A stretch of DNA of 64,000 bases from Candidatus Omnitrophota bacterium (GTDB lineage: Bacteria > Omnitrophota > Gorgyraeia > B26-G9), in assembly GCA_043805415.1 (NCBI GenBank), contig JAZDHZ010000014.1, forward strand, positions 10,393 through 74,392, in the 5' to 3' direction. Position 1 is the first letter of the stretch. Every line of letters begins with the position of its first letter. Positions 27,114-50,733 of this stretch are shown piece after piece. Position numbers and translations under genes: made by a program. Under the pieces are notes generated by a model that was not told the origin of the DNA, made no database searches, and saw only the letters and a program-made list of their open reading frames with translations.

Positions 27114-28523
27114 TCACGCCCAAATAGGAACATATTTAGCATATCTCCTGGAAACGTTATCAGGATCTTCAAATTTAATCATATTACGCGATAGAGCATC
27201 CTGAATTACGCGAGAAATAGCATCTGAATTTTTCTCTGACAAATTAAACCTTTCTCTCAAGCTTTTATTTGTCATTTTTTGATTCATAACATACTTCAAA
27301 CAACAATGCTGATAACACGCTCTCACCTTATCTTCTTTTGACATATCATTGAATTTTCTATGCGAAAAAAGAATTATTGATGTTCGGAGTTGTCCTACGC
27401 GAAAATCTGGTGCCGGTAACTGTAATAATTCTGCAGAATTAACAACTCTATCAATACCACTACCAAGCTCCTCGCAAATTCCTAATCGCCTCATTACATC
27501 AGCCAATTTTTCATTTCGAGACTTATATTCGTCTATGAAACGATCTGGGGTTATAACAGGTCTCCCGGGATTAGAGATCTCTATTCTGTCGGAATAAAGT
27601 TCAATCATCACTGAAGCTCCTTTTTCTTTAAAGTCTTGATGAATCAATGCATTTGCAAGTAACTCCCTAATAGCAATTTTAGGAAACATTTTTATTGTCT
27701 TACGGATTGCCTTTTCTATTACTTCATTTGTAGGTATTTGAGCATCAATAAAATCTACTAAATTCTGAAAGCCTACAGCGTAACCTTTAGCTCCTTGTTG
27801 AAATAGTTTTGTTTTATTTTTACCAGTATCCTCATAAACAACTAACCGTACCGCTTTACGCTCTAAACCAGAAAATTCTTTTAAATTTTTAGCAAATAAT
27901 ATCGCCCCCAAATTAGTAATGTCGTATACATCGCCATGTTTAACAATAAAACCTTCTCGAGAAAATTTATCCAGCACTCCCTCTCTATTTTCAGGATAAG
28001 GACGTCCCGATAAATCAAAGTAACTTTGTGTATCAAGCAATCGAATAATTTCTGGCGAATCAACATTTTCTTTTGCAATAAGACATAAAAACTCAGGACT
28101 TCCTTCTGCAAAAATTTTCTTTAGTTGTTCTGGTGACATCGGAGCTAAAGTATCACCTGCCCGCATAAGATATTTACCTTCATATTGAATAGGTTGCCCT
28201 TGAGGTCGTGAAGGCACGAAAAACACTAACACTCGACCATTTTCATGTGTTAATTCTTTATAGTCAACCTTAAAATGCAATCTTTCATATATTCCTGCTA
28301 CTGTTTTGGATGGTGTCTGAAAAGCCGCTGTCCCAACAACAATTCTAGGAAGGCTATCTGTGACTCCTAATACTATATGTCCGCCGCATTCGTTTGCCAA
28401 GGCAACACAATATTCAATAAGTTTGTCGAATTGAAAGCTACTTTTTGCTTCTTTAAATTCTAAATGTTCAGTTTCAGAAGGGGCTATCAGCCATCCGCTC
28501 AAGTCTTTCAAAGTAATATCCAT
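27114..28523 (-). CDS. AlbA_2 (Schlafen-like divergent AAA) + HATPase_c_4 domain protein
   Basis: N-terminal pattern EFKEAKSSFQFDKLIEYCVALANECGGHIVLGV typical of AlbA_2 'putative DNA-binding' domain; C-terminal region with HATPase-like motifs (NALIHQD, ISNPG). Confidence 0.65.
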   Translation of the reverse strand: MDITLKDLSGWLIAPSETEHLEFKEAKSSFQFDKLIEYCVALANECGGHIVLGVTDSLPRIVVGTAAFQTPSKTVAGIYERLHFKVDYKELTHENGRVLVFFVPSRPQGQPIQYEGKYLMRAGDTLAPMSPEQLKKIFAEGSPEFLCLIAKENVDSPEIIRLLDTQSYFDLSGRPYPENREGVLDKFSREGFIVKHGDVYDITNLGAILFAKNLKEFSGLERKAVRLVVYEDTGKNKTKLFQQGAKGYAVGFQNLVDFIDAQIPTNEVIEKAIRKTIKMFPKIAIRELLANALIHQDFKEKGASVMIELYSDRIEISNPGRPVITPDRFIDEYKSRNEKLADVMRRLGICEELGSGIDRVVNSAELLQLPAPDFRVGQLRTSIILFSHRKFNDMSKEDKVRACYQHCCLKYVMNQKMTNKSLRERFNLSEKNSDAISRVIQDALSRNMIKFEDPDNVSRRYAKYVPIWA

Positions 28524-28872: not shown

Positions 28873-29679
28873 TTATATAAATCCGGGGAATTTTCGCTTA
28901 AATTCTTTTTTCATTAAATGAAAGGCTATATCTAATATTTCTTTTCTCTCTTTTCTTGCTTCAGCAACTATCTTAGATCTTAACTTCCCATGGCGAACTT
29001 CAGTCGCAACTTCTGTCAATGGCTTCATAAACGCTGTATTTGTTTTTAAAGCTACATGCATCTCACTCCAATGCTTTTCCTTAGTTATTCCTTTCTCTGA
29101 ATTTATAGCTTCTCTAATATCCTCAAGAATCCTGTAGGCAAAGAAGAACGCATTATCTCCTGGATCATTGATGCAATTGTAGTAATCTTTAAGCATTATT
29201 TTATGAAAAAAGCTCGAATTTATCACCGGGAAAAACTTTGCTACTTTCCGCCAAGTTACATTTGGTAAAGCATCTTTATTGGGCGTATACATTTTTCCGG
29301 CATAATCTAGCGTCCAAATTAAATTATGCTCAGCTTTTGTATTCATTGCCTCTATGCAACGGTTTACCGTAAACGAAAGTTTATTGTAATTATTCTCATA
29401 AACAATATTCTCTCTGAAAATAAAAGATGTGATGAGTGTATGAAAAGCTTCATAAACAAAAGGAGCAACTTTTACATATCCATCCTCTAAAGAAGGATTC
29501 CAAATAGAGATCCCATTGAAAAAGATGTCTAGTCTGTATCCGCCTCCTAAATCGAGTTCACCTGGATTAAATTTGTAGCAATAATCTGGAGGATTTAATG
29601 TCGCAGTAAAATAATATGTTTTATTTCCGGATATTTCCATGTTTTTATTGTACAACTCCTTACTTAATAACAATACCAT
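28873..29679 (-). CDS. Hypothetical protein (268 aa)
   Basis: Long ORF, no recognised motif; downstream of a small membrane protein gene on same strand. Confidence 0.4.
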   Translation of the reverse strand: MVLLLSKELYNKNMEISGNKTYYFTATLNPPDYCYKFNPGELDLGGGYRLDIFFNGISIWNPSLEDGYVKVAPFVYEAFHTLITSFIFRENIVYENNYNKLSFTVNRCIEAMNTKAEHNLIWTLDYAGKMYTPNKDALPNVTWRKVAKFFPVINSSFFHKIMLKDYYNCINDPGDNAFFFAYRILEDIREAINSEKGITKEKHWSEMHVALKTNTAFMKPLTEVATEVRHGKLRSKIVAEARKERKEILDIAFHLMKKEFKRKFPGFI

Positions 29680-29775: not shown

Positions 29776-30168
29776 CTATCCACATAAATTCATCATGAAG
29801 ATTGCAAATGCTATAATGTACGCAAGTAAGGTGACTGAATCAGCAACAACATCAATCCAAAACTTCTGTATTATTTCATTTGACCAAATATAACAACTTG
29901 TTGGCTGTAATTGTTCATCTGCTCTTCCAGCATAGACATTCCAGTGAACAATTTTATTTAAAAATGTCAATAGCACCTGAGTACTTATCGCAATCGCAAT
30001 TGCTCCAACAAATAATTGCTTATCTACTAAGCTGTTGAAAAACTCTTTCCCCCCTACAACTAACGCAAGGGCACCTATACCATAAGCAACAAACCAGTTT
30101 CTCAGTACTGAAGCATGTTTCCAATATTGATCAAAATACTCTTGAGCCGAACTATTATGATTCCCCAT
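29776..30168 (-). CDS. Hypothetical small membrane protein (130 aa, 3 TM)
   Basis: Hydrophobic segments VAYGIGALALVVGG, VGAIAIAISTQVLLTFL, LLAYIIAFAIFMM. Confidence 0.4.
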   Translation of the reverse strand: MGNHNSSAQEYFDQYWKHASVLRNWFVAYGIGALALVVGGKEFFNSLVDKQLFVGAIAIAISTQVLLTFLNKIVHWNVYAGRADEQLQPTSCYIWSNEIIQKFWIDVVADSVTLLAYIIAFAIFMMNLCG

Positions 30169-30418
30169 GATCTTGCTCCTTCTTAGATTGTGTGCGATTA
30201 AAGAACTAAAAAGCTAACGGCAGAGCTCGGCTTCGTCGTGCCCGCATCCTCGCTTTATATAGCTCGCGTGCTAACGCACTCAGAAAGCCAGAACAGCCGC
30301 AATGCCCAAAGACATTCGCCTTTGGCGAAAGACTTTCGTCCGCTTTCGCGGATTCGTATTGCTTGATAAACAGTAAAAGGTTATTAGAAACCAAACGGAA
30401 TAACCTCAAATTAATGGA

Positions 30419-31309
30419 TTACATAGTTCTATATACATCTTCTTCACACAACTTAAATTTCCCAAAGTAATCCAATAATCTTAAAAAATATTCCCTGAAT
30501 AAATTTTGACAAGAAACATATTTTTGAAATCTATCATCAAAGCTTAAACGAGATACCCCGGAGTGAATTATTTCGTTTCTTAAATCTATAATATCTGTTA
30601 ATGATGGATTCATCCCCACATTTCCAAACATTTCGGTAAGTAAGGTTTTAAAGCCTTTGTGCTGTGGCCTGCCACTTCGCCTTCTCATCATCGCCAACGT
30701 CGTTCCTGAAGGATAAAAATTATTATTAAAAATAGGATATCCGATATGACATGCATATGTATGCTTTAAATTTTCCAATAAAACAAACATAAACACAAGG
30801 CGAGCCTCTATAGGAAGATTTGGTTTTTGACTCAAAACATAATAATCTAAAATTACGTTCAATTGCCTGGATTGCCGCAACTTTCTATAATTAGGCCAAG
30901 CTTTTTCAAGATATAGCTTAGTTGCTTTTCCATGTATTTCTATAATTTTCCAAGATGTTTGGACAATTCCATTTCCAGATAGCCATTTTTCCTTTTCCCC
31001 ATAGATCTCTTTGTGACAATATACTTCTGAACAAGTAATAAACGATAAAAGCTCTGCGATATCACGAATTAAATCTCTTACAGTATCAACTTGAGACCTC
31101 GGAACATCTTTAATTGTAAGATCTGTTGTGAAATGTGTTTCTCCTTCAAAAATTTTTCCACGAGATGTACTATATCCTTCTTTTTGTCGCAATTCGACAA
31201 CAAAACCATCCAAATTAGCGGAAATAAAATTCTGAAAGTGCCAGCCCGGCCCTATTTTCTCAGTGCCAATTAAAAGACAATTCGCAAGAGTTCCAATGAA
31301 ATCTGTCAT
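30419..31309 (-). CDS. Hypothetical protein with C-terminal HEPN-like R-x4-H motif (DUF4145-type)
   Basis: Motif IIDLRNEIIHSG near the C-terminus; 43 bp downstream of the PD-(D/E)xK-like gene, probably co-transcribed. Confidence 0.45.
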   Translation of the reverse strand: MTDFIGTLANCLLIGTEKIGPGWHFQNFISANLDGFVVELRQKEGYSTSRGKIFEGETHFTTDLTIKDVPRSQVDTVRDLIRDIAELLSFITCSEVYCHKEIYGEKEKWLSGNGIVQTSWKIIEIHGKATKLYLEKAWPNYRKLRQSRQLNVILDYYVLSQKPNLPIEARLVFMFVLLENLKHTYACHIGYPIFNNNFYPSGTTLAMMRRRSGRPQHKGFKTLLTEMFGNVGMNPSLTDIIDLRNEIIHSGVSRLSFDDRFQKYVSCQNLFREYFLRLLDYFGKFKLCEEDVYRTM

Positions 31310-31352
31310 AACAACCCAATATTATATGCGTTGTAAAACCTAAAATTAGTAA

Positions 31353-32894
31353 TCAAAAATCCTCTGACAATGCTTTTCTTTCCATATCAAAACAGCGATA
31401 AACCACAGGGATTGAAAAATTCTCCCTAATATATTTCATGTAACTTTTTGTATCATCGTCAGGGAAAGAATCTCCAATAATAATTAGCTTTTTAGCCCTC
31501 TCAATATCTGGCCAATAAGCATACTCCATGATTTGTCCCAACGCTTGTCTTATGCAAAGTTTTGGCATCTCAGTTTTTATCTCGAAATAATGCCATTCGT
31601 TTTCAAGTGTCCTAGCCTTTATATCGATTCTCCCCTTTTCTTCTTGGACATTAACATACTCATGCTTATATTGTTCTCTTAGAAGCAAAGTAAGGGCATT
31701 TTGCATCTTGCTGTGATATGGATCGTATTCAACTTCTTTTTTAAATACAACTATTCTTTTTTTTTCACTTCTCTTCTTTCCCTCGTCTTCATCGTCAAAA
31801 CCTTCTTTCAGAAGAAAATTTGTCTTTTTAGGAATCAGCTTGAACCTGCTTGTTGTTATATTAATATCCTCATCTGAAATCTCAATCAACTCGTCAAATT
31901 GTTTCACGTTATCAAATCTAAATTTTATATTAAAAATTAATTCTGGAGAATTAAAATTTTCTTGAAAAAGAACGGGATTACCGCCAACATTTTTTATATC
32001 AGCAATTAGCTCTTCTATCCAGCCTTTTGTTTTATACATTTTATAGACTATAGTTGCTTCTTCGGAGGAAAGGCAACTAATTTCCTTTATGTCTCCAACA
32101 TAAAATCTCTTCTTTGCGCCGCTGATTGTATACAACGCAACATTATAAATATTACCCACATGTTTTCCTGATTCTACCCTGAAAGGCTCGAGAAATGCAT
32201 AATGAAATCCATCAAGAATACGAGACTTGTCTAAAAGCCATTCCTCATGCCCATATCCATATTGTGCCTCGTAAGAGTTTGAATCAGAACTCTTCCCTTT
32301 TGCTCCTGAAGGAAATTTCCACCCCTCTGTATTCCAGCAAATCCTTGCTACTTTATTAGTAGTCCCAAATTCCTGCTGCTCTTTTCTTAGTTGTATGATT
32401 TTTTCAACATATTTTTTATAAAAATGAGAATCAAGGAAAGCGATGCCTTTAGGTTTATATTCCTCAATCATAGAATCAATAACAGGCTTTACATTGTTTA
32501 AAAAATCTTTAAGGTTTGCTAAATAATGATTGCCGTCATAATTTCTATGCCACTTATTTTTATTACCCTGTTTTTGAAATCCACCAAGCCTTTCTGCAAC
32601 CTTACGCAAAAACTTTGCCTTCTCTTGAGAATCTTGACCTGATATTTCAATATAAGAATTACCTTTTTCATCAACTACAAATCCTATATTATGTATCTTC
32701 TCCTTCCAGTCTCCGCCATCCCAAAACGATACTTGCAAATATTTATCATTACCAATAAACCAATATCTTTCTTCGAATCGTTTCTTATTATTAATTTTTC
32801 TTGGAACAAAGAAAAAATTATTATCTTTTTCATGCAACTCGACTAGGAAGTCAAATATTTTTTCATGTTTTAAAACCGTGCTTCTACTGCCCAT
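31353..32894 (-). CDS. Hypothetical protein with C-terminal PD-(D/E)xK nuclease-like motif
   Basis: C-terminal GRIDIKART...WHYFEIKT fits the D...(D/E)xK restriction-endonuclease-fold pattern; N-terminal 350 aa unassigned. Confidence 0.45.
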   Translation of the reverse strand: MGSRSTVLKHEKIFDFLVELHEKDNNFFFVPRKINNKKRFEERYWFIGNDKYLQVSFWDGGDWKEKIHNIGFVVDEKGNSYIEISGQDSQEKAKFLRKVAERLGGFQKQGNKNKWHRNYDGNHYLANLKDFLNNVKPVIDSMIEEYKPKGIAFLDSHFYKKYVEKIIQLRKEQQEFGTTNKVARICWNTEGWKFPSGAKGKSSDSNSYEAQYGYGHEEWLLDKSRILDGFHYAFLEPFRVESGKHVGNIYNVALYTISGAKKRFYVGDIKEISCLSSEEATIVYKMYKTKGWIEELIADIKNVGGNPVLFQENFNSPELIFNIKFRFDNVKQFDELIEISDEDINITTSRFKLIPKKTNFLLKEGFDDEDEGKKRSEKKRIVVFKKEVEYDPYHSKMQNALTLLLREQYKHEYVNVQEEKGRIDIKARTLENEWHYFEIKTEMPKLCIRQALGQIMEYAYWPDIERAKKLIIIGDSFPDDDTKSYMKYIRENFSIPVVYRCFDMERKALSEDF

Positions 32895-33236: not shown

Positions 33237-33566
33237 TTAAACCTTGAAACAGTGATATCCTTTTAAGGCGTCCAAAGCTGCGTAAGCCCAGGAACGATGT
33301 AGTTGCGAAGAATGTCCGTTTCCATCATTTAATCCGGCAATAGCCTCTACCGACCAAATCAGATTACCAAACTTTTCAGACATATAAGCATTCCCCATAT
33401 CTTCTTGTTTAGCTTTTTGCTTTAGATCTTCAGACAATGTTTTAATTTCAGTACAAATTCTATAATTATCACAAGAAGAATCATGCAACATACTACCAAC
33501 TAGGCACCTCATATGTTCCAGCGTGCTTTTTATATCCATACTATCCTCCTTATAGGATGTCTCCAT
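33237..33566 (-). CDS. Hypothetical protein (109 aa)
   Basis: ORF only. Confidence 0.3.
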   Translation of the reverse strand: METSYKEDSMDIKSTLEHMRCLVGSMLHDSSCDNYRICTEIKTLSEDLKQKAKQEDMGNAYMSEKFGNLIWSVEAIAGLNDGNGHSSQLHRSWAYAALDALKGYHCFKV

Positions 33567-33670
33567 TCTATATCCCGATTGTGATTATCTTTTTGATTAC
33601 CCCTAAATTTCTAATATTCCTACATCTTTAAACGTGTCGATCGTGCTTTCCAATCAGTGTAATCATTCTT

Positions 33671-34720
33671 TCACCAACGAAAACCAGCACCCACAGTAAC
33701 AACTGCTTCATCTTTAGTCTTTAAAAACCTCAAAAACGATAATCCTTCTCCGTCTAATATCTTTCGGGAGAGTTGTAGCTGAGCGCTGATGTTTTTATTC
33801 TGATCGTTTTTTAATTCAAAACTTATACTATCTTTATCAGTCAGCTTTGCTTCCGCTCCAAACGTAATTGCCCGAATATTTCCATTTTCATATTCCACTT
33901 CAAATACCAAGCCGATATCTTTTTTAATTTTCCATTTACCGCAAAGCGTGATTATCTGCTCTTCCGGACTCTTAGCCAAACCAATGCCTAATTCATATTT
34001 AATGTATTTATCTTTAAACACAGCCGCGCTGGTTTTAAAACTAAACACAGAATCAGACTGCAAATCCAAAACATAAGACAATCTGCCTTTATCTTTAATA
34101 TCCCAATAACCTTGAAATGTTAGAATATGAATATTTTTCTCTTTACGGATAAGCTGAGCTTTTTCGTATTGATAAATAATCTGATGCTGTTTGTTTATTT
34201 CCCAAGTTCCTTTAAAAGTAAGAATATCATAGCTGCCTTTTTCTTTTTGAACTCTAAATGTCAGACGATTGGCTTTATCTGCCTGCCATGCGCCTTTAAG
34301 CTGGAGAATATAGATTGATTGCATATTGTCTTTAGTATGAGTAGTAAGGCTAAAAGCTAAGGAATTTTTGGAAGTATCGATAATTTCTCCCTGAAGCGTT
34401 AATTTATCGCCAAGGGTTTCCCTGCCCCATTTATTAAGCTCTAGACAGAGATTATGGTCCTTATCTAAAGTCCAAACGCCTTCGAGTTTTACTTGATGCG
34501 GGATTTCTGTTCCTTCCGGAGTGGGTGCTTTAATAAGGTAAGTGAGTGTATTATCTTCGTCGATTTTGAAGCGGCCATCAAGAACCTGTCTGAATCTGGA
34601 CAGTTCGCTTTTCTTACCGGATTTATCGATAATCAATCGATTATACGGATCAATTTCATAAGTAACTTTTGGGTTATCCTGGCGTTTTGCCATAACCATC
34701 CTGTTTTTTAAAATTGTCAA
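33671..34720 (-). CDS. Hypothetical protein with about five tandem 45-50-aa internal repeats (G-x-W-x-[LI]-[DN]-K-x-x-x-L pattern)
   Basis: Repeat units visible by eye: EGVWTLDKDHNLCLEL, KGAWQADKANRLTFRV, KGTWEINKQHQIIYQY, QGYWDIKDKGRLSYVL, CGKWKIKKDIGLVFEV. Confidence 0.45.
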   Translation of the reverse strand: MTILKNRMVMAKRQDNPKVTYEIDPYNRLIIDKSGKKSELSRFRQVLDGRFKIDEDNTLTYLIKAPTPEGTEIPHQVKLEGVWTLDKDHNLCLELNKWGRETLGDKLTLQGEIIDTSKNSLAFSLTTHTKDNMQSIYILQLKGAWQADKANRLTFRVQKEKGSYDILTFKGTWEINKQHQIIYQYEKAQLIRKEKNIHILTFQGYWDIKDKGRLSYVLDLQSDSVFSFKTSAAVFKDKYIKYELGIGLAKSPEEQIITLCGKWKIKKDIGLVFEVEYENGNIRAITFGAEAKLTDKDSISFELKNDQNKNISAQLQLSRKILDGEGLSFLRFLKTKDEAVVTVGAGFRW

Positions 34721-34839
34721 TTTTCTAAACGCTTAACGCTATGCGCTATTTTTAATGATCAACTTCGTAAAAAACTTTAAATCTTTAAGCTATGCCCCCC
34801 CTTACTTATATGCTCATAGGAATATTAGGTATTTTGTGA

Positions 34840-35802
34840 TTAATTTTTAACCAACGATACTGTGTCACCTTCAATAAGAATCATGTCCTGTCCAGTAGAG
34901 TCTTTACTATATAAAGATACACTACCAACTATTTCTTGGGAATCTGTTGTAAAAGTTATGTCCTCACCTATCACATAAGCATATCTTGTTAATCCAGAGT
35001 TATATAATCCATCTTTTCCCTTAGGATACTGAGAAAACTTTACATCGTTATATTTTGACTTTAAGATATTAACAAACGCTTTTTCAGCATCTGCTACAAT
35101 TTTCTCTTTAGGTAAAGCTGGTTCAGCTAAAATATCATTAAAATCATCATTATAATCAAAAATAGAAATATTTAACTGTTCAATCTTAAAAAAGAACAAT
35201 ATCATTTCATCTGTAATGCGAGACCGTTCCATTTTTGGATATTCGTTTGATAATATTCGAATTCTTTTGTCGTGTGGCTTTATAACTAAGCGTGTCAAAC
35301 TATCTTCTTTTTTTGAAATTCCAACATAATGCAAATGATACTTTGTTAAATCCCGGAAATTATCGAAGCCTTTAATCCCAGGATGCCCCCTCCATTTGTC
35401 AAATAAGAATTTTTCAGTAGTAAACCAATCGACTACTTTAGTTCTTTCTTGTGTCTCCGTATCATTTTCCCATACCCTGATAAGCTTTTCACCAAATTCA
35501 AATTCAAGATCTGTATTTTTAATCGAAACTCCGTGACATTTAAGGATCTCATTAAAATCTATTTCACCTATTGATTTAACATTCTGCGCATAAAAAGTAA
35601 AAGGTGCTTTTAATTTTGATTGAAAATTAGTGCAAATAATATCCTCGTCAATCTCATACTTTCCTTCTTGACGCTGAGCCACCATATATAGGTTACTCTC
35701 TTTCAGAAGTTTTTGCACTTCAGGATCATCTTTTATCCACTCTGCCTCTTGGTTAGATATTGGAGGATAAACAAGTTTTAAAATATTTAGTTGTGATTTC
35801 AT
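34840..35802 (-). CDS. Hypothetical protein (320 aa)
   Basis: ORF only; same strand and close spacing with the flanking genes. Confidence 0.4.
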   Translation of the reverse strand: MKSQLNILKLVYPPISNQEAEWIKDDPEVQKLLKESNLYMVAQRQEGKYEIDEDIICTNFQSKLKAPFTFYAQNVKSIGEIDFNEILKCHGVSIKNTDLEFEFGEKLIRVWENDTETQERTKVVDWFTTEKFLFDKWRGHPGIKGFDNFRDLTKYHLHYVGISKKEDSLTRLVIKPHDKRIRILSNEYPKMERSRITDEMILFFFKIEQLNISIFDYNDDFNDILAEPALPKEKIVADAEKAFVNILKSKYNDVKFSQYPKGKDGLYNSGLTRYAYVIGEDITFTTDSQEIVGSVSLYSKDSTGQDMILIEGDTVSLVKN

Positions 35803-35884
35803 ATTATTTTCCTCTTATAACATTTGAGCTCAGGCAGAGCAAACGCGTAGCGTTTGCGATTGCCTGTAGCGAATCGTTATGCTT

Positions 35885-37039
35885 TTATAATTTTCCAGAG
35901 CTAGCTTTATCTGCTAATATTATAAATGCTAATGCGTCCATTAGAATTAAAAACTTCAAGGCTAATTCACGACATTCAAAATTAGTGAAAATTCCATGAA
36001 GTATTCCATGTCTATTTACTTCGCTTCTAGGGTCAGTAATTTTACTTATGTTACTCCAAAAAGATCCATCTTTTAATTCTGATACAATTACATCTAATAT
36101 TTTTTTGGGATAAAGCAAAAGCTTTCGAGAAATCACTAACTCTTGTAATTTATCAATTTTCTTTTTATATTCCCATCCATCAATTGCATTACCGTATTTA
36201 GCATATAAATAATCTCTAATGATGCCTTCAAATTGTGGACAAATAATGTAAATCGAAGCAACATAATCTTCTTTTAAATAAGCTTGGATTGATTTTTCTA
36301 TATATGAAATTCGATTATTGAAAAAACTTGCCTCTTTCCAGAATGTAATTTTATTATTCCAATAGGTCTCATTGAACTTTTTTTGAATAGTGTCTGCGGG
36401 AGAATCTGTATTAGAATTGTGCATCTCAATAAAAACTTCTGGATAATAATCTGGAGAAGGGGGCCAATTACATTCTTTAAGCTTTTGCATTTTTTCAAAA
36501 GGTTTAATGTTTTTAACAAAATTTCTTTCATAAAGTAATTGTACAATTGGGTATTTGAATTTTAAATCTGCTGGTTTTTTTTCTGAAAAATCAGGGGCAT
36601 TAGGTGAAAAATCAAAAACGAGATGGGGAGTCAAAAAAACTCTATTTAAAAATGCATAAGCACAAGGAATACCATTACTATCAGGTGGAATAATGAATGA
36701 CACATCTGGATTGGGATCAAGCTCGCTTAATTTTAATGTGGTGCCTACCATGTCCTCTGTGAATTCTCCTTCTTTTAGCTTTAATCTATATTGAATATTT
36801 ACCTCTTCATTTAGTTCAACGATATTTTCAATGCTACCGTTTTCTTTTTTAACTTGGTATGCTCTAAAAGAGTTGATTTCTATTGGCAAGTCAGTTTTAG
36901 AAATTTTTTTTAATTCTATTCTCTTTTCAATCTCGGGAATAACGAAAAGGCGTATCATATCAGAAATCGGACGATATTCCATAATTAATGATCGTTGATA
37001 AATAGTAATATTTTCTTTATTTTGGGTATTATTATTCAT
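35885..37039 (-). CDS. Hypothetical protein with C-terminal HEPN-like R-x4-H motif
   Basis: Motif SEVNRHGILHGIF about 45 aa from the C-terminus, in a predicted helical region; N-terminal 250 aa unassigned. Confidence 0.45.
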   Translation of the reverse strand: MNNNTQNKENITIYQRSLIMEYRPISDMIRLFVIPEIEKRIELKKISKTDLPIEINSFRAYQVKKENGSIENIVELNEEVNIQYRLKLKEGEFTEDMVGTTLKLSELDPNPDVSFIIPPDSNGIPCAYAFLNRVFLTPHLVFDFSPNAPDFSEKKPADLKFKYPIVQLLYERNFVKNIKPFEKMQKLKECNWPPSPDYYPEVFIEMHNSNTDSPADTIQKKFNETYWNNKITFWKEASFFNNRISYIEKSIQAYLKEDYVASIYIICPQFEGIIRDYLYAKYGNAIDGWEYKKKIDKLQELVISRKLLLYPKKILDVIVSELKDGSFWSNISKITDPRSEVNRHGILHGIFTNFECRELALKFLILMDALAFIILADKASSGKL

Positions 37040-37513: not shown

Positions 37514-40500
37514 TCAGTCTTTTCTCCCTTGCAGGAACTGTTTCTTAGCCTCATTCAGCGCCTTATCTCTAAGTTTCTGTAGGTCAATTGGGTTGATACG
37601 ACCATAATACAGTTGCCTCCGATCAAAAGCGCAATTGAATGCTGAAATTAACGAGGCAGGTAGTGTATTGCCTTCGTATCGCACTAGAAGTTCATATATC
37701 TTTACATAGCCCATTTCGAGAATAGAAATTCGATCAGTCTCGGTTATAAAAGCCTGCAGCAGACCAGCATAACCAGGAAGTCGCAGATCGGCATAGATAC
37801 AAAGTAAGAGTAGCTTTTTAAGGTCATTTGTCGTAGTTTCTAGAATGCTTTCTATCGTTTTCTGTAAAGAAGCTGAACCAACATTTTGAGATAGGAATAC
37901 TTCACCTCCAATCGTAACCATGTATGCACACAAAGACGTGAATTGATCATCCTTCATCCCTTCGGAAAAAAGAGTGATCAGTTCCATATTACATTGCAAA
38001 TGAAAATCTAGAATTCGATCCAGTAACGTCTTTTTAATTTCAGCTGATATATGCTCGAGATTTCGAAACACATTATAGAAGGTCTTAAGCGCCATTATAT
38101 TCCATGCGACCTTTTCAATCTTATTTTTGGGAGGAGTTATCTTCATCATCCCTCGTCCAAGAGTACGATGATTTTTTTGATCCTCTTCAAACCCCTCATC
38201 TGCCTTTTCATAATCTAATTTCGAATCGATAGCATCTTTCGTCATTTTGTCTTTTTGTGTGCTTTCATGTTTCGGAGACAACAAATGATGTATATACTTC
38301 TCAAGATCTAAAGACGTCACTTGATTTGCAGGGGCATATTCTTCCTCAAGACATCGCATCAGCTCTTTCACTAGACTTTCTTCATCTCGATGTCGACCTG
38401 CATAATAAGCAAGTGAATCCCCTAACCGTAAAGCCGTATGAAGTCCTTGTAGATGTTCTTTAAGATTTATTTCGCTTGCCTCAACAGCTTGAGCTAAGTA
38501 GTAATTAAAAAAAACAATGCATGAAAAAAACACTACGCCCTGCGAATCAGTAATAATAATTCCCGATTTCTCAAGATGCTGAACAAACTTAGTTGCATCC
38601 ACATCCAGCGCCTTGTCTGAAAAATAGGCCAAGATTTGTTGTTCATAATCTATACGCAATATTCCCAAACTCCCTAGTCGATAACAAGCAGCGGCTAATT
38701 TCATAAGCATAAGACGAAGATTATAAATTGAGTAGTTGCTCGCCGGATCTGATTTGTCTAAACTATTCTCCTCAAGTCGTTCAAGAAGTCGAACAAAAGA
38801 TATACTCGTAATTTTTCCTCCAAATTCTAAAAAAACACGCAAATATAGCGACACCAAAAATGGGGTAACTGGGAGATCGGATAACGAAAGGCTATCCCAA
38901 ATGAATTTAACAGCTACATCGGTGTCTATTGCCAAACCAGTTGCCTCAAGGTAGCGAGTTGCAAATTCCCGAAGCCTACTGGGTCCCCAATAACGAAGAC
39001 GCAAAAACTTTATGTCTCTTTTATCTTGCGCTGCGGCAAGCATATCAAAAAGAACTTCATTCTTGAGGCAAATAACAATGTGCGGAATTACCTCAATGCC
39101 TGCTAATATTTTAGACACAATATTTATATCTGTTACTGATATATGATCAACAATCAAAGTCAAATCAACTGATGCAATGTCTGATTCGTCTATGTTGCTT
39201 TTCTTAATGATTTTTCTCAGTAGATTTTCCGGAGACTCAGCATCTTTAATATCCTCATAATTCACATAAACCGCGAGCCGTTTAGAACCAATTTTGTTAA
39301 TTCTCTGTGCAAGTTCTTCCAAAAAAAGCGTCGATCCAGCATCGGGAGGCGCATAAATTATACAAGTATGATCCATGGCAAAGCTGTAGGGATCTCTTAT
39401 TGTATCACCCTTCTTACCTTTCTTCTCCCATAATATCTCTTGAATAGACGGAATAAGTAGAATGGGAGGGTCAATTTGCTGTGCATTCTTAAGACTCGCC
39501 CCCATCTTCAAGCTTAGCGCAGAGTTAGTCTCCGTAACCTTTCTTGACAATGCAAGGCTCGCTTGATCTGCAAATGCTGAACTAGGCAAAGTGTACTTAA
39601 ATTCACCTTCAGGGGCATGATTAACATTGTGATCATATCTTAATCCTCCTCGTATAAATACACGAAACTTCGCATGTAATATCCCTTTTAAAGGATCCTC
39701 TATAGAATAAATGTTATATCCATCATTTCGCCCCCCCGGCACACCAGCAAAAAATGATGGAGCCATTAACTCAAGACAACCTCCTGAAGGGGTTGTGCTA
39801 GAAAGTGAATTTGTTTCATGATTATGTCCAGTTAAAATAATATCAAATTTTGATCTTAGGTCTTGTTGTACAATTTCTTGTTCAGAAGGATGAAACCAAG
39901 TCAATGGATGATGTATCAAAGCTATCTTAAAATCACAACCCTTGATTTTTTCTGCGAGCTCGTTAACTTGAATTCGCGTAAGAAATATTCTATTTTTTGT
40001 ATTATCATCAAAACAAGCCCAAGCTGAATCAAAAGCTGCAACCCCAACTTTTATTTTGTCTATCTGTATAATATGAGCTCTATAGGAATTACCTCTGGAT
40101 TTGCTGTACAAAGAATGTAAAAACTCAATATATTGCGTTTGCTGCGGAAGAATCAAGTCTCTATCTTCAAAAAGAGTTTGAGCTGTTTCCGTGTTGCTAA
40201 GCCGTGTGGATGCCCCATCACAAACCAAACTTTTAATTAGACCTCTCGTAATGTCATGATTGCCAGGACATACCACAATATCGCATGGTTTTATTCCGAG
40301 TTCTTTAACAACCGGACTAAAAAACTCATTCTGTGCTATACCATACTCTTCTGCAAGGCCTGAAAATGCTATATCGCCAGAGATAAAGATTATATGTGGT
40401 TTAACCTGAAGCTTTCGCAAGTCCTTCAGTAAAGCATCGCGTCGAATCCTAAACTCCGTTATTTCCTCATTGCGACAATGAAGATCAGAAAGATGCAATA

Positions 40501-40516
40501 ATGTTAAATCCCTCAT
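37514..40516 (-). CDS. Large (1000 aa) protein: N-terminal calcineurin-like metallophosphoesterase domain + degenerate P-loop NTPase-like region + helical C-terminal domain
   Basis: MPE motifs in order: LHLSDLH (D-x-H), GDIAFSG (GD), GNHD, HHP, GHNH. The downstream segment IIYAPPDAGSTLF...LTLIVDH resembles a degraded Walker A/B pair, followed by about 500 aa of helical sequence. Confidence 0.55.
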   Translation of the reverse strand: MRDLTLLHLSDLHCRNEEITEFRIRRDALLKDLRKLQVKPHIIFISGDIAFSGLAEEYGIAQNEFFSPVVKELGIKPCDIVVCPGNHDITRGLIKSLVCDGASTRLSNTETAQTLFEDRDLILPQQTQYIEFLHSLYSKSRGNSYRAHIIQIDKIKVGVAAFDSAWACFDDNTKNRIFLTRIQVNELAEKIKGCDFKIALIHHPLTWFHPSEQEIVQQDLRSKFDIILTGHNHETNSLSSTTPSGGCLELMAPSFFAGVPGGRNDGYNIYSIEDPLKGILHAKFRVFIRGGLRYDHNVNHAPEGEFKYTLPSSAFADQASLALSRKVTETNSALSLKMGASLKNAQQIDPPILLIPSIQEILWEKKGKKGDTIRDPYSFAMDHTCIIYAPPDAGSTLFLEELAQRINKIGSKRLAVYVNYEDIKDAESPENLLRKIIKKSNIDESDIASVDLTLIVDHISVTDINIVSKILAGIEVIPHIVICLKNEVLFDMLAAAQDKRDIKFLRLRYWGPSRLREFATRYLEATGLAIDTDVAVKFIWDSLSLSDLPVTPFLVSLYLRVFLEFGGKITSISFVRLLERLEENSLDKSDPASNYSIYNLRLMLMKLAAACYRLGSLGILRIDYEQQILAYFSDKALDVDATKFVQHLEKSGIIITDSQGVVFFSCIVFFNYYLAQAVEASEINLKEHLQGLHTALRLGDSLAYYAGRHRDEESLVKELMRCLEEEYAPANQVTSLDLEKYIHHLLSPKHESTQKDKMTKDAIDSKLDYEKADEGFEEDQKNHRTLGRGMMKITPPKNKIEKVAWNIMALKTFYNVFRNLEHISAEIKKTLLDRILDFHLQCNMELITLFSEGMKDDQFTSLCAYMVTIGGEVFLSQNVGSASLQKTIESILETTTNDLKKLLLLCIYADLRLPGYAGLLQAFITETDRISILEMGYVKIYELLVRYEGNTLPASLISAFNCAFDRRQLYYGRINPIDLQKLRDKALNEAKKQFLQGRKD

Positions 40517-40877: not shown

Positions 40878-41390
40878 TTATGCAAGCAAAAGCTTGATTT
40901 GTTCAGCATTAAGATGTTTGGGCTCTTTATCTGAGATAGCTTTCCATGCTAACAACATTTCCTTATAGCGATTTAGTTTAGGAGCGTGAGAATTCATATC
41001 TGCTGACCGCTTAGGTAAAAATTTATTAGTTTCCCTTGCTTTACTTAGAAGGAATTCGGCATAACAATATTGTTCTGCTTCAAAGCTAAAGTCAAAGCCT
41101 TTAAATACTATTGCATCCTCATTAATATCAGCCTTATCTTCCAAATTCTCACATGACCATTGAATATCATTAAACATTGTTAAAATATCTTGAATTTCCT
41201 GATATTCTTCCACTGTCATTTGATTCTCTTCTATTGACATAAATAATTCTTCAAACTCTCTAAGATATCCCTTCTCTACTATTTTCTTTTTCTCAAGACA
41301 CAATTCTTTTTTTGAATCGCTAGAGTTTAAATATGCTAAAATTTCAAACTGGTTGGCAAGAATTAGTCTCTCACTTTTTGTTAATTCCAT
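40878..41390 (-). CDS. yfbU: YfbU-family protein (UPF0304/DUF1323)
   Basis: From internal Met: MELTKSERLILANQFEILAYL..., FKGFDFSFEAEQY, MLLAWKA align with E. coli YfbU (MEMTNAQRLILSNQY..., FLGFDAATEARY, MLNVWHA). Track ORF starts 13 codons upstream. Confidence 0.65.
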   Translation of the reverse strand: MELTKSERLILANQFEILAYLNSSDSKKELCLEKKKIVEKGYLREFEELFMSIEENQMTVEEYQEIQDILTMFNDIQWSCENLEDKADINEDAIVFKGFDFSFEAEQYCYAEFLLSKARETNKFLPKRSADMNSHAPKLNRYKEMLLAWKAISDKEPKHLNAEQIKLLLA

Positions 41391-41684
41391 TCCCCCCCCT
41401 TGTTTTATATTATGCTTGAATTTTATCACAAAAACTTCCTTTTAATCCACTCTTTTGGATCAGGCCACCATCCCGAGAAATCAAAAAATCTATATACATC
41501 ATTCATTTTAAAATCTCCTTTATTTTCTCCAAACCACAACATTTATAATATCTTCAATTACACACAACATTCAATCCCACCTACTCCAGTTTCCATTTTT
41601 AAAAATATATTTTCCCTCTATCGAAGCAGACAGGCTGTCTATGCCTTCAAGGCTTTTATTCTTCTCAATAATCTTTAAATCTCA

Positions 41685-43949
41685 TCAGAGAATCCCTACA
41701 AATTCAGCTACAAAATGCAGCTTTAATGAAATGTCACCATCCTTCTGATCAAAAACTAATGGTGAGTATGATTTATTTTTGGGAAGAAGCTCAACTCGAA
41801 TGTTAAAACCATCTTCTCCCTTATGACTTTGATATCCCTTAATTGTATACGATCCCCCCGTATGTGGATCTGGTTCTCCCTGATATTGAAAAAGATAAAT
41901 TCCTCCTCTTTGTGAATATGGTCCTGCAGGATTAGCTTTAAAAATACAATAGTCACCATTTTTTATTCTTGGTTCCATAGAATCTCCAACTGCGCGGACA
42001 ACAAACATCGTCTCATCTAATCCCTTTCGATCGACAAAAACCCATCTATCTTCTTTTACTTCCATCCCATCAGCAAATTTACCGCAGGCAGCAGCTAAGG
42101 AATAAACTGGTAGATATTTACTAGAATCTTCACCCTCTGGAATAACATCACTGAAAAACAAATCAGAAACCAGTCTATTGCCATTAACTGGAGTATCTCG
42201 AATATTTGAAAGCCACTCGTTAGCAAGGCTATCAATTCTATTCTTCCACCTGGGTCCTCTCTCATGCCGATATTCCAAACATGAAATAATTAACTTTAAG
42301 AGTTCCTCTGGATGAAACGGGTTTTTTAAAAATTCCCTTAAAACATCACGAAGTTGCCCTATTGTGAGCGGAACGATATTAATTTCGACCTCTTCATCAT
42401 TTGAGGTGTACCAACAATCTCTTCGAAAAGTTTCCGCAGTATTACTATTAATATCAGGTGCAAGAAAAAGACCATAAACTTCTTTATCTGACTCTTTAAC
42501 TATATCTGCTACATGCCTTCTTACTGTCTCACCTTCAGCTGCTTCTTGTCGTGATGAACTTGTTAGAGTAACTTCAATTACTAAAACAAAATTATCAAAT
42601 TCAAAAATCATATCAGGACCACCTCCAGGAGCTGGATGACGAGGCAGCATATCTTCATCAATAAGAAACCGTCTTGTGTTATGTGCTGGCACAGCAATAT
42701 GGTCAATGGCTAAAAACGCCCTCCACACAATCCACTCCAAATAAGTTGGAGGGTCAACAATATGCTTCATGGCTTGTCGTCTCCCCGTAGCAAAAGCATC
42801 CAAATATTCTAAAATATCAGTAACCGAGTCCTCATGCGCTTGTTCTATTGCAAATTTTTCCTCTTCACTTTGAGCAAATAATTCAATTAACTTATACCTC
42901 TCTTTTTCTAATATTCTAACATCAGTCTCAACTGATAAATTCTCTGCACTTTTCGGAACAGCTTTTCCATCATCTGTTAATTGTGATGCCAACTTTCCAA
43001 TTTCATGCAAAGCAAAAGAAGGATTATCCATTGGCAAAGATGAACCTCGATAAAATTCTTTTAAATATTCCACCTTTCCTTCTTCATGTAAAATCCGCGG
43101 TTCTTCTTCGAGAATAGCTTTTATAATATCAAGTTTGTTTTCCCTTAAAACAATGGCGCCACCTCTAAAAGATAACAATCCGGTCATCCTACTATAACGA
43201 ACTGTAGTATCGGCATAATCACCTAAAGTCCCGAATTGCACCCCGCCCTCAAGCCCTTTAGCTTCTAATATAGCCCTATCAAATGCTTTTAAGTTATTCC
43301 TGCCACTCACTTCACTTCGCCTTTGTCTATATTCAAGAATCTCTTTAACTGTCCTCTCCACCTCAGCAACATCATGTTTTCTAAACAATTGCAAAAAAGC
43401 CGCCATCTCAATTTTTTTTAAACCGCTTTGTTCCCGCTCTCTTAATACAAACAATACTTGCAGCAAGAAAATAAATGGCTTCATTATTTCACCCTGAAAA
43501 CTTGATTCAATCTGTGACGGAATCTCAAGACACCGCAATTGTCTTAAAAAAACATCTGAAATTGCACCACTAGAATCGGCATTCACCAATAGCTTTCCTG
43601 CTGGGGTCAACTCATAAAGCTTCCCCGATAATCCTAGATCCTGACAAAGTTCCTTAAATGAATCCTGAAATCCTTTATTAAATTTATCGGTAACAAAACC
43701 CAGCTTCACAAAAACATTTCTCCATTTCCTTCCAAACCAGGACGGCTCACTTCCTGCAGTGCTTATGATGCCCTCATCATGCAATTTTCTTGTAAACGCC
43801 GCCTCTTGTTCTGCGCCATATACATTTCCCTGAAAATGTTTAGCGAACACAATAAGACCTTCTTGAATCCTATTTGGATTTCGAACAGTTGTATTTCCTA
43901 AATCCCAAACTCTTCTCGGCATAAAACTCCTAGTATGCAACAAATACAT
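41685..43949 (-). CDS. Candidate type IIS restriction endonuclease partner of the adjacent two-domain MTase, with C-terminal LexA/S24-like (GDSMEP) beta-barrel domain
   Basis: 754-aa ORF overlapping the MTase stop by 20 nt (operon). C-terminal about 110 aa contains VGDSMEPRIKNGDYCIF, the S24 peptidase-fold signature. The N-terminal 600 aa is unassigned; calling it an endonuclease is an inference from context. Confidence 0.4.
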   Translation of the reverse strand: MYLLHTRSFMPRRVWDLGNTTVRNPNRIQEGLIVFAKHFQGNVYGAEQEAAFTRKLHDEGIISTAGSEPSWFGRKWRNVFVKLGFVTDKFNKGFQDSFKELCQDLGLSGKLYELTPAGKLLVNADSSGAISDVFLRQLRCLEIPSQIESSFQGEIMKPFIFLLQVLFVLREREQSGLKKIEMAAFLQLFRKHDVAEVERTVKEILEYRQRRSEVSGRNNLKAFDRAILEAKGLEGGVQFGTLGDYADTTVRYSRMTGLLSFRGGAIVLRENKLDIIKAILEEEPRILHEEGKVEYLKEFYRGSSLPMDNPSFALHEIGKLASQLTDDGKAVPKSAENLSVETDVRILEKERYKLIELFAQSEEEKFAIEQAHEDSVTDILEYLDAFATGRRQAMKHIVDPPTYLEWIVWRAFLAIDHIAVPAHNTRRFLIDEDMLPRHPAPGGGPDMIFEFDNFVLVIEVTLTSSSRQEAAEGETVRRHVADIVKESDKEVYGLFLAPDINSNTAETFRRDCWYTSNDEEVEINIVPLTIGQLRDVLREFLKNPFHPEELLKLIISCLEYRHERGPRWKNRIDSLANEWLSNIRDTPVNGNRLVSDLFFSDVIPEGEDSSKYLPVYSLAAACGKFADGMEVKEDRWVFVDRKGLDETMFVVRAVGDSMEPRIKNGDYCIFKANPAGPYSQRGGIYLFQYQGEPDPHTGGSYTIKGYQSHKGEDGFNIRVELLPKNKSYSPLVFDQKDGDISLKLHFVAEFVGIL

Positions 43950-45875
43950 ATTCTAGAACTCTATTAGCATTATCTCCCACTTTATGCCCATGAGTTCCAA
44001 ATGAGTATAGATGTTCTACTTGATGAACAATAACTTCATCTTTATATTTTTTAAGCAAATTAATCATCTGACTCTTCGAGGGTATAGAATTTGATGAATA
44101 CGAAACAACTAAAATGCTATCTTGAAATTTTTGAAACAATGAATCAAAAGCTGAAAAAATAGTATCTTTTGAAGAAAATGGCGTATTGTATTTTTCAAAC
44201 TTTTTTGTCTTTGTATGAAGCTGTATTTTTAAACCTTCCCATTGTCGAGTTAGTCCCTCAATAAAATGATAGCGCCGAGTATAATCATTATCTGAACTCT
44301 TAGAGCAATATGGAGGGTCTATATATACCAAATCAGCCTTAACATCTAATTTGAATATATCACCAGTAAATGATTCATTTTTAAACCCATTATTAAATAC
44401 CGCGTGATTAAAGGCTTCGACATTTTCCAAAAAATGTTGCCTCAAATCAATCTTCATATCTCTTCTTCCATCATCATATTTATGACCAACATAAGTAAAA
44501 ATTCCGCGTGCTCTACGCTTCAAACAGGCTCTATTTAAAGCGGAAAGGGCTAATGCCCTCTTGTATTCATTACCAAGCTGCTCAATTCTACTTCTCATTG
44601 AATCTAAAAATTGATTTTCCTCATCACTAAAATATAACCCCTTAAATGTTGTTGATATAAACTTATTATTTTTGAGATTATATGACAACAATATCTCTAC
44701 ATCTTTTTTATCCAACACGACTTTAGAATTTTGAATTAAAGCTTTGGAAAGTTGACCACAAAAAGACATAAAATCATTACTAATAACTTTTTTCTTTTGC
44801 TGTTTAAACATATACGACACACAAGCGCTACCAGAAAAAGCATCAATAACTGTGTCAAAAGGAAGGTCTTTTACGCAATCCCAAATAAATGGTAAAACCC
44901 TATATTTGCTACCCATAAAACGTGTACCTGGAAATTTCTCTAATATTTGTTTTCCTTGCAAAGAAAAATAAGAAGGCGTCTTTTTCTGCGGCTTAGTTGC
45001 TATAACTATAAGATCTTGCCCTGTTCTCGTTGCTGCATTACAACTAATATTTCGTCGAGTTTTAACTGCCTTATATTGAAAATTATCATACAGCTTACGA
45101 ACAAACTCAGCATTTGAATTGGTCAAAAGAACATAAACGCCTCTACCGACTAATTCAGAAACTAAATCCCTTAATTCAATATGGTCTTCCTCATAAAATA
45201 ATTCTTTTGTGTACCGCTTAAAATCTGAAAAACCTCCAACGGGATAATAAGGTGGGTCAAAAAAGACAAAATCTCCTTCCTCTGCATGTTTTTTTACAAC
45301 ACTAACATAATTATCACAAATCAAATTTACACCCTGCAATGCACGGTGCGCATTAAGCAATTTAACTTCTTCGCAAATTGTTGGATTCTTACGACTTCCA
45401 AAAGGAACATTAAATTTACCTTCTTTATTAACCCGATACAAACCATTATAACAAGTCTTGTTTAAAAAAATAAATCTGGCAGCTCTTTTTACAACACTTA
45501 ATTTATTAGGATTTTGTTGTCGTACCTTATAATAGACCTCTTCGTCGTTCTTATATTTTTTCAATGCCCCTATAAGATTATCAAGATCATCCCTCAAAAC
45601 CTTATAGCAGTTAACCAACTCTTCATTGCTATCAGATAAAATAGCTTTGGCAGGTAACAAACTAAAAAACAAAGCCCCTCCCCCAGAAATGGCTCGAAAT
45701 ATCTCTTATAAGAAGCTGGAACATATTTTTCCAACTCAGGAATAAGCTGTGTTTTTCCTCCAGCCCATTTCAAAAAAGGCTGACCTTTAAACTTTCCTAA
45801 TTTTTTTACTATGTTGTCTTGAGAATTATTCTTCATATACAAATTATCTGCTTTCGTTAATTCCTCTAAACTCAA
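43930..45875 (-). CDS. DNA adenine N6-methyltransferase with two Dam-like (D12 class) domains; reading frame interrupted in a G-run (frameshift or sequencing error)
   Basis: Two DPPY motifs (YFFDPPYYP and YIDPPYCS). The N-terminal [11 protein letters not shown]...YFEPFLGEG lies in ORF 45594-45875 and continues in another frame as (GGGA)[25 protein letters not shown] in ORF 43930-45672. The break is at gggggagggg, 45676-45685. Confidence 0.7.
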
Positions 45876-46159: not shown

Positions 46160-46465
46160 TTAACTAATCAATTTATCAAACAACGTCCCACTCTTCCGTC
46201 CTCGAGCGTCAGTTTGAGTCATATTACGAAATGTGCTAAATTTATCGAGGATGTTACGAGCAAGGTCAATCGCGCTAGTACCCTTGGTCCCAGTGCGCAG
46301 AAGAATGGCCAAAAGCTCTGACTTACTCAAAGTTCTTGCCCCATTCTTGAGCAATTTCTCTCTGGGCCGATCATCTACTGGCCAATTCTTTATAGCTTGC
46401 TTATTAACTTTACTAATCTTTTTTTCTTTTTTCATTTTTATTTCCATAGCGAAGATTCTTTCCAA
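46160..46465 (-). pseudogene. RadC N-terminal (HhH) fragment; JAB/MPN domain missing
   Basis: WPVDDRPREKLLKNGARTLSKSELLAILLRTGTKGTSAIDLARNIL matches the RadC N-terminus; the ORF stops after 101 aa. Confidence 0.6.
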
Positions 46466-49909: not shown

Positions 49910-49944
49910 CAGGCAGCTCCGTTCGGCCACTCTGGCACCTCTCC
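49853..49944 (-). tRNA. tRNA-Ser (anticodon GCT), long variable arm
   Basis: Minus strand GGAGAGG...anticodon loop CTGCTAA...long extra arm...T arm GGGTTCGAATCCCAG...CCTCTCC-G-CCA. Confidence 0.85.
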
Positions 49945-50656: not shown

Positions 50657-50733
50657 TGGTGCGCCTGGCAGGAGTCGGACCTGCAACAACTTGCTCCGTA
50701 GGCAAGTGCTCTATCCAATTGAGCTACAGGCGC
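50657..50733 (-). tRNA. tRNA-Arg (anticodon ACG), atypical T-loop
   Basis: Minus strand GCGCCTG-TA-GCTC-AATTGGATA-GAGC-A-CTTGC-CTACGGA-GCAAG-TTGTT-GCAGG-TCCGACT-CCTGC-CAGGCGC-A-CCA. Confidence 0.8.

Follow-up and report, generated by a model that had tools for sequence, protein, structure and literature searches.

Type IV restriction enzymes couple a reader domain to a nuclease (PMC11090510), and the same modular layout recurs in other accounts of these enzymes (PMC6765204, PMC7897488); those compared here are the MspJI/AspBHI family, the EVE-HNH enzyme VcaM4I, and the PUA/DUF3427-nuclease fusions (PMC6765204, PMC7897488). Catalytic HEPN ribonucleases (RNases) carry an Rx4-6H motif with a polar residue after the arginine and an acidic residue upstream (PMC3710099). 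HEPN domains have also been linked or fused, repeatedly and independently, with restriction-fold deoxyribonucleases (DNases) and restriction-modification (R-M) systems (PMC3710099). Here, we describe two adjacent genes, A and B, in a 64,000-nucleotide (nt) stretch of contig JAZDHZ010000014.1 from a Candidatus Omnitrophota bacterium (the window, meaning the whole stretch that was analyzed). A encodes a three-domain protein ending in a PD-(D/E)xK nuclease domain, and B encodes a HEPN protein; proteins 100% identical to A (P0001) and to B (P0121) come from a Candidatus Omnitrophota metagenome-assembled genome.

The locus resembles PrrC-EcoprrI and other HEPN-R-M linkages in placing a restriction-fold DNase beside a HEPN RNase. 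However, those linkages are conserved neighborhoods (PMC3710099), whereas the adjacency of A and B occurs only in two related contigs. A DNase/RNase neighborhood is a known theme that is not conserved here, and the element of real interest is a widespread, undescribed domain in the middle of A. We favor, with a probability of about 0.6, the reading that A and B are two separate, self-contained defense genes that lie side by side, probably co-transcribed, in a tRNA-Ser-linked island.

Co-occurrence of genes A and B

The initial annotation of this DNA, made from the letters alone, placed two genes on the same strand 43 bp apart; both open reading frames (ORFs) are confirmed on the minus strand, with the gap at 31310-31352. 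The only other locus that carries both genes is L089, a 4,025-bp metagenome contig, in which the products share 64% (A) and 71% (B) protein identity with those of the window. The features of the locus are as follows (aa, amino acids; all on the minus strand).

31353..32894, minus: gene A, ORF for a 513-aa three-domain nuclease; locus tag V1747_03560, "hypothetical protein"
32361..32894, minus: N-terminal domain of A, aa 1-178; accessory, swappable
31779..32357, minus: middle domain of A, aa ~180-372; Trp-rich, putative reader of DNA or modified bases
31353..31727, minus: C-terminal PD-(D/E)xK nuclease domain of A, aa ~390-513, including the stop codon
31575..31640, minus: catalytic block of A, E419...D424...E438-I-K440, from translation and alignment conservation
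31310..31352, minus: A-B spacer, 43 nt, with no terminator-like site found inside
30419..31309, minus: gene B, ORF for a 296-aa HEPN protein; locus tag V1747_03555, "hypothetical protein"
30980..31309, minus: N-terminal beta-sheet/helix domain of B, aa 1-110, from the secondary structure of the model
30476..30931, minus: HEPN domain of B, aa ~127-278
30563..30580, minus: HEPN Rx4H motif of B, R244-N-E-I-I-H249, from translation and conservation
30279..30418, minus: 3' noncoding element with hairpins, probable terminator region of A-B; conserved in L089
30190..30278, minus: rest of the GC-rich stretch, not conserved; homology to L089 ends at ~30279

Since A and B share a strand, are separated by only 43 nt, and have a terminator-like site after B and none between them, they are probably transcribed together. 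The corresponding spacer of L089 is 42 nt long and 65% identical, with CATATAATA in common. Probable co-transcription does not make the two genes interdependent.

To recover relatives of A, we scanned one genome per species, which gave 241 stretches, and fetched the best 80 loci with 6 kb on either side. Relatives of B numbered 26 in the first protein search and 64 loci in a metagenome scan. Co-occurrence was judged by running a B-family hidden Markov model (HMM) on the A loci and an A-family HMM on the B loci, ~165 loci in all. Apart from L089, the B-family HMM had no match in the ~92 other loci with an A relative. Nothing was found in the best 80 species-genome loci, in L001-L004 (among them the conjugative-element locus of the A homolog P0012), in 8 viral contigs carrying A relatives, or near the next-closest full-length A homologs (L160, L161, and L163; 54-59% identity), whose downstream genes encode a transposase, an unrelated 349-aa protein, and a TerB_N protein. 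At L009, the closest genome match to A, the downstream gene encodes an unrelated protein of 1257 aa, again with no B-family HMM match. Conversely, the A-family HMM found no match in the ~72 other B loci apart from L089, ~33 of them with at least 1.6 kb upstream of B; these comprise 64 metagenome loci (26 of which reach this length), 3 viral loci, and 5 others.

Both genes are therefore present in 2 of ~165 loci, the window and L089, with no regular adjacency across lineages. Clustering of neighboring genes gave no partner family common across the A loci and none across the B loci, only contexts confined to subclades. The two-gene system proposed in the initial annotation gains little from this survey: the observation it had named as fatal, that homologs of the two genes never co-occur, is nearly what we find, with L089 as the one exception. 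A conserved A-B pairing is rejected by these HMM searches; A and B are autonomous and mobile, and are usually found apart. Because their relatives almost never co-occur, independent single-gene defenses are the most likely arrangement. A neat DNase and RNase gene pair in a defense island is not necessarily a system, and co-occurrence needs testing in such cases.

Domain architecture of A

Searches of a 5.8-billion-protein collection recovered more than 500 relatives of A, mostly of ~510 aa and from Bacteroidota and Omnitrophota. Neither A nor B has a significant match in the Pfam, NCBIfam, or PHROGs libraries searched, and four proteins encoded next to them likewise have no match in PHROGs. 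An AlphaFold2 model of A, built on 84 relatives (predicted local distance difference test score, pLDDT, 92.7; predicted template modeling score 0.85), places a domain matching restriction-endonuclease-fold nucleases at the C-terminus, with the alpha-beta-beta-beta-alpha-beta arrangement and the (E)...D...(D/E)xK residues of the PD-(D/E)xK superfamily. In the 84-sequence alignment, D424, E438, K440, Q454, E457, and Y458 are invariant and E419 is conserved in at least 90% of sequences; the catalytic residues lie on model strands E413-418, E425-429, and E434-439. The motif from which a PD-(D/E)xK DNase had been proposed, EKGRIDIKARTLENEWHYFEIK, corresponds to residues 419-440 and exceeds chance, given the conservation of its catalytic residues in this alignment; for both A and B, the folds first suggested are borne out by the models and their fold matches. 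Weak PDDEXK_9 matches occur in 22 of the 84 relatives, and the best fold matches of the nuclease domain include Cap4, Can2, Card1, NucC, LmuA, and the Avs4 nuclease domain. Compared with Mrr-like domains (the type ISP LlaBIII nuclease domain and AF1548), identity is only 12-14%, and A lacks an ATPase, a methyltransferase, and a winged-helix module.

Approximately half of the genome loci with an A relative encode only a ~334-aa core, made up of the middle and nuclease domains; this free-standing core occurs in many bacteria, some archaea, and viral contigs. Homologs of the core are also inserted in hsdR-hsdS-[A]-hsdM operons. No methyltransferase adjoins A in the window, and most A-homolog loci also lack an adjacent one; the methyltransferase nearest to A (43930..45672) belongs to an AlwI-like R-M system 11 kb away. 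We also observed that the homolog P0012 lies in an apparent conjugative element (L001 1-13533; BFBZ01000014.1) with a relaxase upstream and with NYN, FRG, and GmrSD_N (type IV restriction) genes; at least 24 contigs from different samples share this arrangement.

The initial annotation had assigned to A a large N-terminal region of no recognizable type. Large it is, but it resolves into two domains (aa 1-178 and ~180-372), of which the second, the middle domain, is constant in the family together with the nuclease domain. W187, W192, P195, G197, G215, E217, E218, W219, and Y232 are invariant in the alignment of relatives. When searched alone against 1.84 billion cluster representatives, the middle domain recovered 945 clusters at 50% identity (E <= 1e-3), and in almost all of the best 150 matches it is followed by ~150 more residues, the length of a nuclease domain. 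The family that this domain would define comprises these 945 clusters and reaches at least 241 species genomes, spanning bacteria, archaea, and viral contigs. The domain has no Pfam match, no sequence match in PDB, and no fold match beyond the nuclease domain; thus, unlike the type IV enzymes above, A has no detectable sequence or fold similarity in this region to PUA, EVE, SRA, DUF3427, or any PDB entry. More generally, none of the known modified-base-binding folds (PUA/EVE/SRA/YTH, DUF3578, winged helix, and others) was found in A as a reader.

The partners of the middle domain vary. In P0232, an HNH domain (Pfam HNH, 2e-7) and one additional domain accompany it, and PADLOC labels this protein a "type IV methyl-directed restriction enzyme" (8e-9). 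The Vibrio gigantis plasmid protein WP_102392639, annotated as "HNH endonuclease", combines it with HNH alone (PADLOC HNH, 6.5e-22). In P0180 it is combined with a McrB-like AAA_5 ATPase containing NMDD, which resembles the NxxD signature described for McrB (PMC11090510). A therefore shares with type IV enzymes a separate putative specificity domain that is reused with other nuclease or translocase modules, together with the lack of a cognate methyltransferase encoded alongside.

The most economical reading of A is type IV-style, since its middle domain is combined with PD-(D/E)xK, HNH, and McrB-like modules, no methyltransferase of its own is present, its relatives often reside in R-M operons, and the core is probably self-sufficient. 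That A is a defense DNA endonuclease we consider quite probable; that its activity depends on DNA modification is close to an even call, leaning slightly against. Under this reading, A would act as a single-chain, restriction-like DNA endonuclease in which the middle and PD-(D/E)xK domains together form the conserved functional unit. The middle domain would recognize target DNA, by analogy with type IV enzymes most likely through a modified base or modified DNA, and the PD-(D/E)xK domain (E419, D424, E438, K440) would then cut the DNA so bound. A broader proposal would make the ~190-residue middle domain a reader of DNA or modified bases with a new fold, the defining part of a large single-chain type IV-like family, and a module also recruited by HNH nucleases and McrB-type motors; it would add that in Omnitrophota this module has been joined with a HEPN RNase into a DNase/RNase pair. 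We put this forward only tentatively, as possible though doubtful when taken as a whole.

The N-terminal domain is the exchangeable part. Residues 9-181 match positions 7-188 of the 584-position PADLOC PtuA1 model PDLC00287 (E 7e-34). Relatives of the P0118 type (633 aa) and the P0111 type (467 aa) are 57-62% identical to A from residue ~160-180 on, with N-termini that are unrelated to that of A and are tagged PF28530 and PF26348; the ~334-aa core-only homologs lack the domain altogether. On a Fulvitalea plasmid, a domain of the A type also heads a 709-aa AAA-family ATPase that is encoded beside a type I R-M system and that PADLOC does not recognize as PtuA. By sequence or fold, the domain has no match among PDB structures, and it appears that no deposited PtuA structure contains it. 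This exchangeable domain, common to some defense ATPases, would add a second specificity or a regulatory input.

Septu was considered as an assignment and rejected, as only the accessory N-terminal domain of A matches the PtuA1 model: the match stops before the ATPase, Pfam and NCBIfam give no ABC or AAA ATPase family match in A, and no HNH/PtuB gene lies nearby. The first impression that the locus fits no named system holds for the Pfam, NCBIfam, PHROGs, and PADLOC searches, but must be qualified by this match to the front of PtuA1. The accompanying view that a sensor is lacking has to be revised, as each of the two noncatalytic domains of A and the one of B may serve as a sensor of its own. 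END nucleases (PMC12191111) were likewise set aside as relatives of A: they carry an inactive EndoIII reader and are analogous, not homologous. A is not assignable to any named family, because its reader fold has no assignment, its Septu match covers only an accessory domain, and its modification dependence is putative; by analogy, it would work like a reader-nuclease type IV enzyme.

The A family is absent from the copies of Pfam, PADLOC 2.0, NCBIfam, and PHROGs searched, and its members, where named, are called "hypothetical protein"; hundreds of genomes would thus carry an unrecognized defense gene. If the middle domain is a new reader of modified DNA, it would add a widespread class of modification-dependent nucleases, enzymes that are useful epigenetic tools and relevant to phage host range.

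The HEPN protein B and the element downstream of it

The AlphaFold2 model of B (pLDDT 90.6) matches HEPN domains and shows their four-helix up-down fold. The motif RNEIIH, on which the initial identification of B as a HEPN protein had been based, corresponds to residues 244-249; R244, N245, and H249, together with E179-N-L-K182, are invariant in 25 relatives, so that B presents the R244-N245-x3-H249 motif with its polar residue and the upstream acidic residue E179. Against the Pfam profile HEPN_RiboL-PSP (PF18735), B scores 17.4 bits and its homolog P0138 20.9 bits, both below the gathering score of 28.4. At E <= 0.1, PADLOC gives no match for B, AbiD, AbiJ, and other abortive infection (Abi) families included. 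The N-terminal domain (aa 1-110) has no family or fold match in the library and fold searches, and is possibly a sensor or an autoinhibitor. By analogy, B would be an Abi-like HEPN endoribonuclease in which the Rx4H site (R244, N245, H249, E179) cleaves RNA without a metal, and the N-terminal domain probably holds the protein inactive until infection.

B resembles stand-alone HEPN RNases (Abi2/AbiD/AbiF, AbiJ, RiboL-PSP-HEPN, YopA_C; PMC3710099) in its Rx4H motif, the polar residue after the arginine, the upstream glutamate, and the helical fold, and also in its contexts, which include prophage inserts, toxin-antitoxin neighborhoods, and R-M operons. It differs from them in falling below the HEPN_RiboL-PSP gathering score, in having no PADLOC Abi match, and in its N-terminal domain without assignment. 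Compared with HEPN-MNT modules, B is twice as long, owing to the extra N-terminal domain, and neither the window nor the B-homolog loci contain an MNT nucleotidyltransferase gene. Within the defense RNases of the HEPN superfamily, B represents a new and small family.

Among the contexts of its relatives, one subclade (L158 2013-8833; L123, L132, L138, L143, L146) forms part of a conserved operon with the order SNF2 helicase (~1064 aa), DUF4391, [B], N6_N4 methylase, in which B overlaps the upstream gene by 4 nt. Other relatives adjoin an integrase or an AbiJ_NTD4 protein, or overlap HicAB, and one comes after a PIN_2 gene and a 396-aa gene. Defense-type HEPN RNases occur in such contexts (PMC3710099). 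A tblastn search of B against deposited phage genomes gave no match. Separately, in Undibacterium sp. TC9W (L005 6001-6900; JBMPPJ010000020.1), the homolog P0138 is a lone insert in a P2-like prophage, between a tail-completion gene (Phage_tail_S) and a baseplate gene (Phage_base_V) and beside a divergent 178-aa gene, a moron-type position that is consistent with prophage-encoded defense. In the window itself, a 384-aa protein (35885-37039, minus) ends in ...VNRHGILHG, an Rx4H-like motif, and is a distant homolog of the 396-aa gene product encoded directly upstream of the B homolog P0124 (L091 1727-2917; BLASTP E 1e-10, 24% over 251 aa); this is possibly a second HEPN-like family near B in two unrelated contexts.

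Downstream of B, GC content rises to 0.52-0.53 over 30200-30350, against 0.26-0.37 on the flanks. The first 140 nt past the stop codon (30279-30418) are 86% identical to L089 2480-2619, compared with 71% (A) and 77% (B) for the coding DNA. This element contains an AT-rich hairpin with a T-run after it, as well as the hairpin CCGCGAAAGCGG, which reads CCGATAAATCGG in L089 through a compensatory change; a terminator-like hairpin lies at 30329-30315 on the minus strand (TTCGCCAAAGGCGAA+TGTCTTTGGG). The conserved 140 nt are the probable terminator region of the A-B cassette. Of the hairpin cluster at 30190-30410 first proposed as a terminator or an associated RNA, the conserved and terminator-like part stands, whereas the remainder is not conserved in L089. 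The GC-rich region was rejected as a known RNA or repeat, as it has no Rfam match, its folding energy is not unusual (z = -1.35), and the window holds no second copy; in the fetched loci, the 3' element also accompanies no further B homolog. In viral contigs, three exact 19-mer matches were treated as chance, as they come from a single virus and have only ~25 nt in common. A 67-aa TTG ORF (30206..30409) overlaps the stretch and is conserved over only part of its length in L089; it is probably not a gene.

The high identity to L089 is not confined to the noncoding element. From ~180 nt before the end of B through the 140 nt that follow it (window 30279-30600; L089 2300-2619), the two contigs are 85-98% identical, against 55-80% in the rest of the cassette; within those ~180 nt, only 5 of 45 identical-residue codons differ (11%), compared with ~45% elsewhere (40-50% in mid-A). 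This patch could reflect recombination or constraint at the nucleotide level. Homology stops at ~30279, beyond which L089 continues in unrelated DNA with an ORF of the group II intron reverse transcriptase type. By eye only, L089 3280-4025 has the appearance of a group II intron, with structured GC-rich DNA followed by an ORF that starts ...LLAKILDIVNMNLAYKRVKANKGSHGVDGM, a beginning we take to be typical of intron reverse transcriptases.

Alternative explanations and the surrounding island

Two points weigh against two independent genes. Many contigs bearing B are short, so the absence of A is informative for only ~33 of them. In addition, L089 keeps the pair, its spacing, and the 3' element despite a divergence at which 40-50% of identical-residue codons differ in mid-A, possibly through selection that keeps the two genes linked in this lineage. 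A lineage-restricted, two-pronged system, in which the DNase attacks incoming DNA and the HEPN RNase serves as a backup suicide arm, set free upon inhibition or activation of A in a PrrC/EcoprrI-like manner, would accommodate the shared strand, the 43-nt gap without a terminator-like site, the preservation of order, spacing, and 3' element in L089 at ~30% protein divergence, and the recurrent association of HEPN domains with restriction-fold DNases and R-M systems (PMC3710099). We nevertheless consider it quite unlikely: only 2 of ~165 loci hold both genes, both families are clearly viable alone, the next-closest homologs of A (54-59%) and of B (46%) have unrelated neighbors, and, at n = 2, common descent or the transfer of both genes as a single cassette explains the conservation in L089. 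A different challenge concerns A itself, which might not depend on modification and might instead be an infection-triggered, Abi-type or gated nuclease that uses its middle and N-terminal domains to detect a phage protein, a nucleotide signal, or a DNA structure. No similarity links the middle domain to known base readers, signal-activated effectors (Cap4, Can2, Card1, NucC, LmuA, and the Avs4 nuclease domain) are among the best nuclease fold matches, and the N-terminal domain is held in common with defense ATPases, all of which fit such gating. However, the pairing of a single domain with PD-(D/E)xK, HNH, and McrB-type partners is seen most typically in type IV specificity domains (PMC6765204, PMC11090510), and core homologs lie inside type I R-M operons; we therefore regard gating as somewhat unlikely.

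Far less probable is a type III-like toxin-antitoxin arrangement with B as the toxin and the structured RNA of 30279-30418 as its antitoxin. The 86% identity of these 140 nt against 71-77% for the genes, the single compensatory hairpin change, and the absence of an adjacent protein antitoxin such as MNT would suit it, but the element has neither tandem repeats nor an Rfam match, folds no more stably than expected (z = -1.35), contains a terminator-like hairpin, and is missing beside other B homologs among the fetched loci; moreover, the high identity extends into the last 180 nt of B, which a recent recombination patch explains equally well. Housekeeping roles for A and B, in DNA repair or recombination and in RNA processing, are similarly hard to credit, given their patchy distribution across phyla, their residence in low-GC islands, prophages, plasmids, conjugative elements, and R-M operons, and the lack of a conserved housekeeping neighborhood at A or B loci. 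The reading of A and B as separate defense genes also agrees with their position in the window: both lie within a low-GC stretch (~27-47 kb; 0.30-0.38 vs 0.40-0.44 elsewhere), and the region of 27-50 kb is a typical integrated defense island, spanning 26700-50000 and ending at a serine recombinase and tRNA-Ser. The other features of the island and its boundary are listed below.

27114..28523, minus: Schlafen AlbA_2 / HATPase_c_4 protein
28873..29679: 268-aa protein, no assignment
29776..30168: 130-aa protein, hydrophobic (probably membrane), no assignment
33237..37039: four genes without assignment
37514..40516: PDC-S60-like metallophosphoesterase-STAND protein
40878..41429: YfbU
41685..45672: AlwI-like type IIS R-M system, with an endonuclease fused to an S24 peptidase and a double D12 methylase
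46438..47328: AbiD/Abi_2
48185..49909, plus: large serine recombinase, whose ORF overlaps tRNA-Ser
49853..49944, minus: tRNA-Ser
50657..50733: tRNA-Arg, after tRNA-Ser

Two further observations concern these neighbors. The AlwI-family endonuclease (41685-43949, minus) carries a C-terminal, LexA-like Peptidase_S24 domain (residues 620-735; Pfam E 9e-8), a fusion that looks unusual and through which restriction could be tied to self-cleavage or SOS-type control. Relatives of the Schlafen AlbA_2 and HATPase_c_4 protein of the window occur only a few genes away from A-core or B homologs in four unrelated loci (L038, L070, L077, and L123; BLASTP E 1e-7 to 3e-13), a recurrence that probably reflects shared residency in defense islands.

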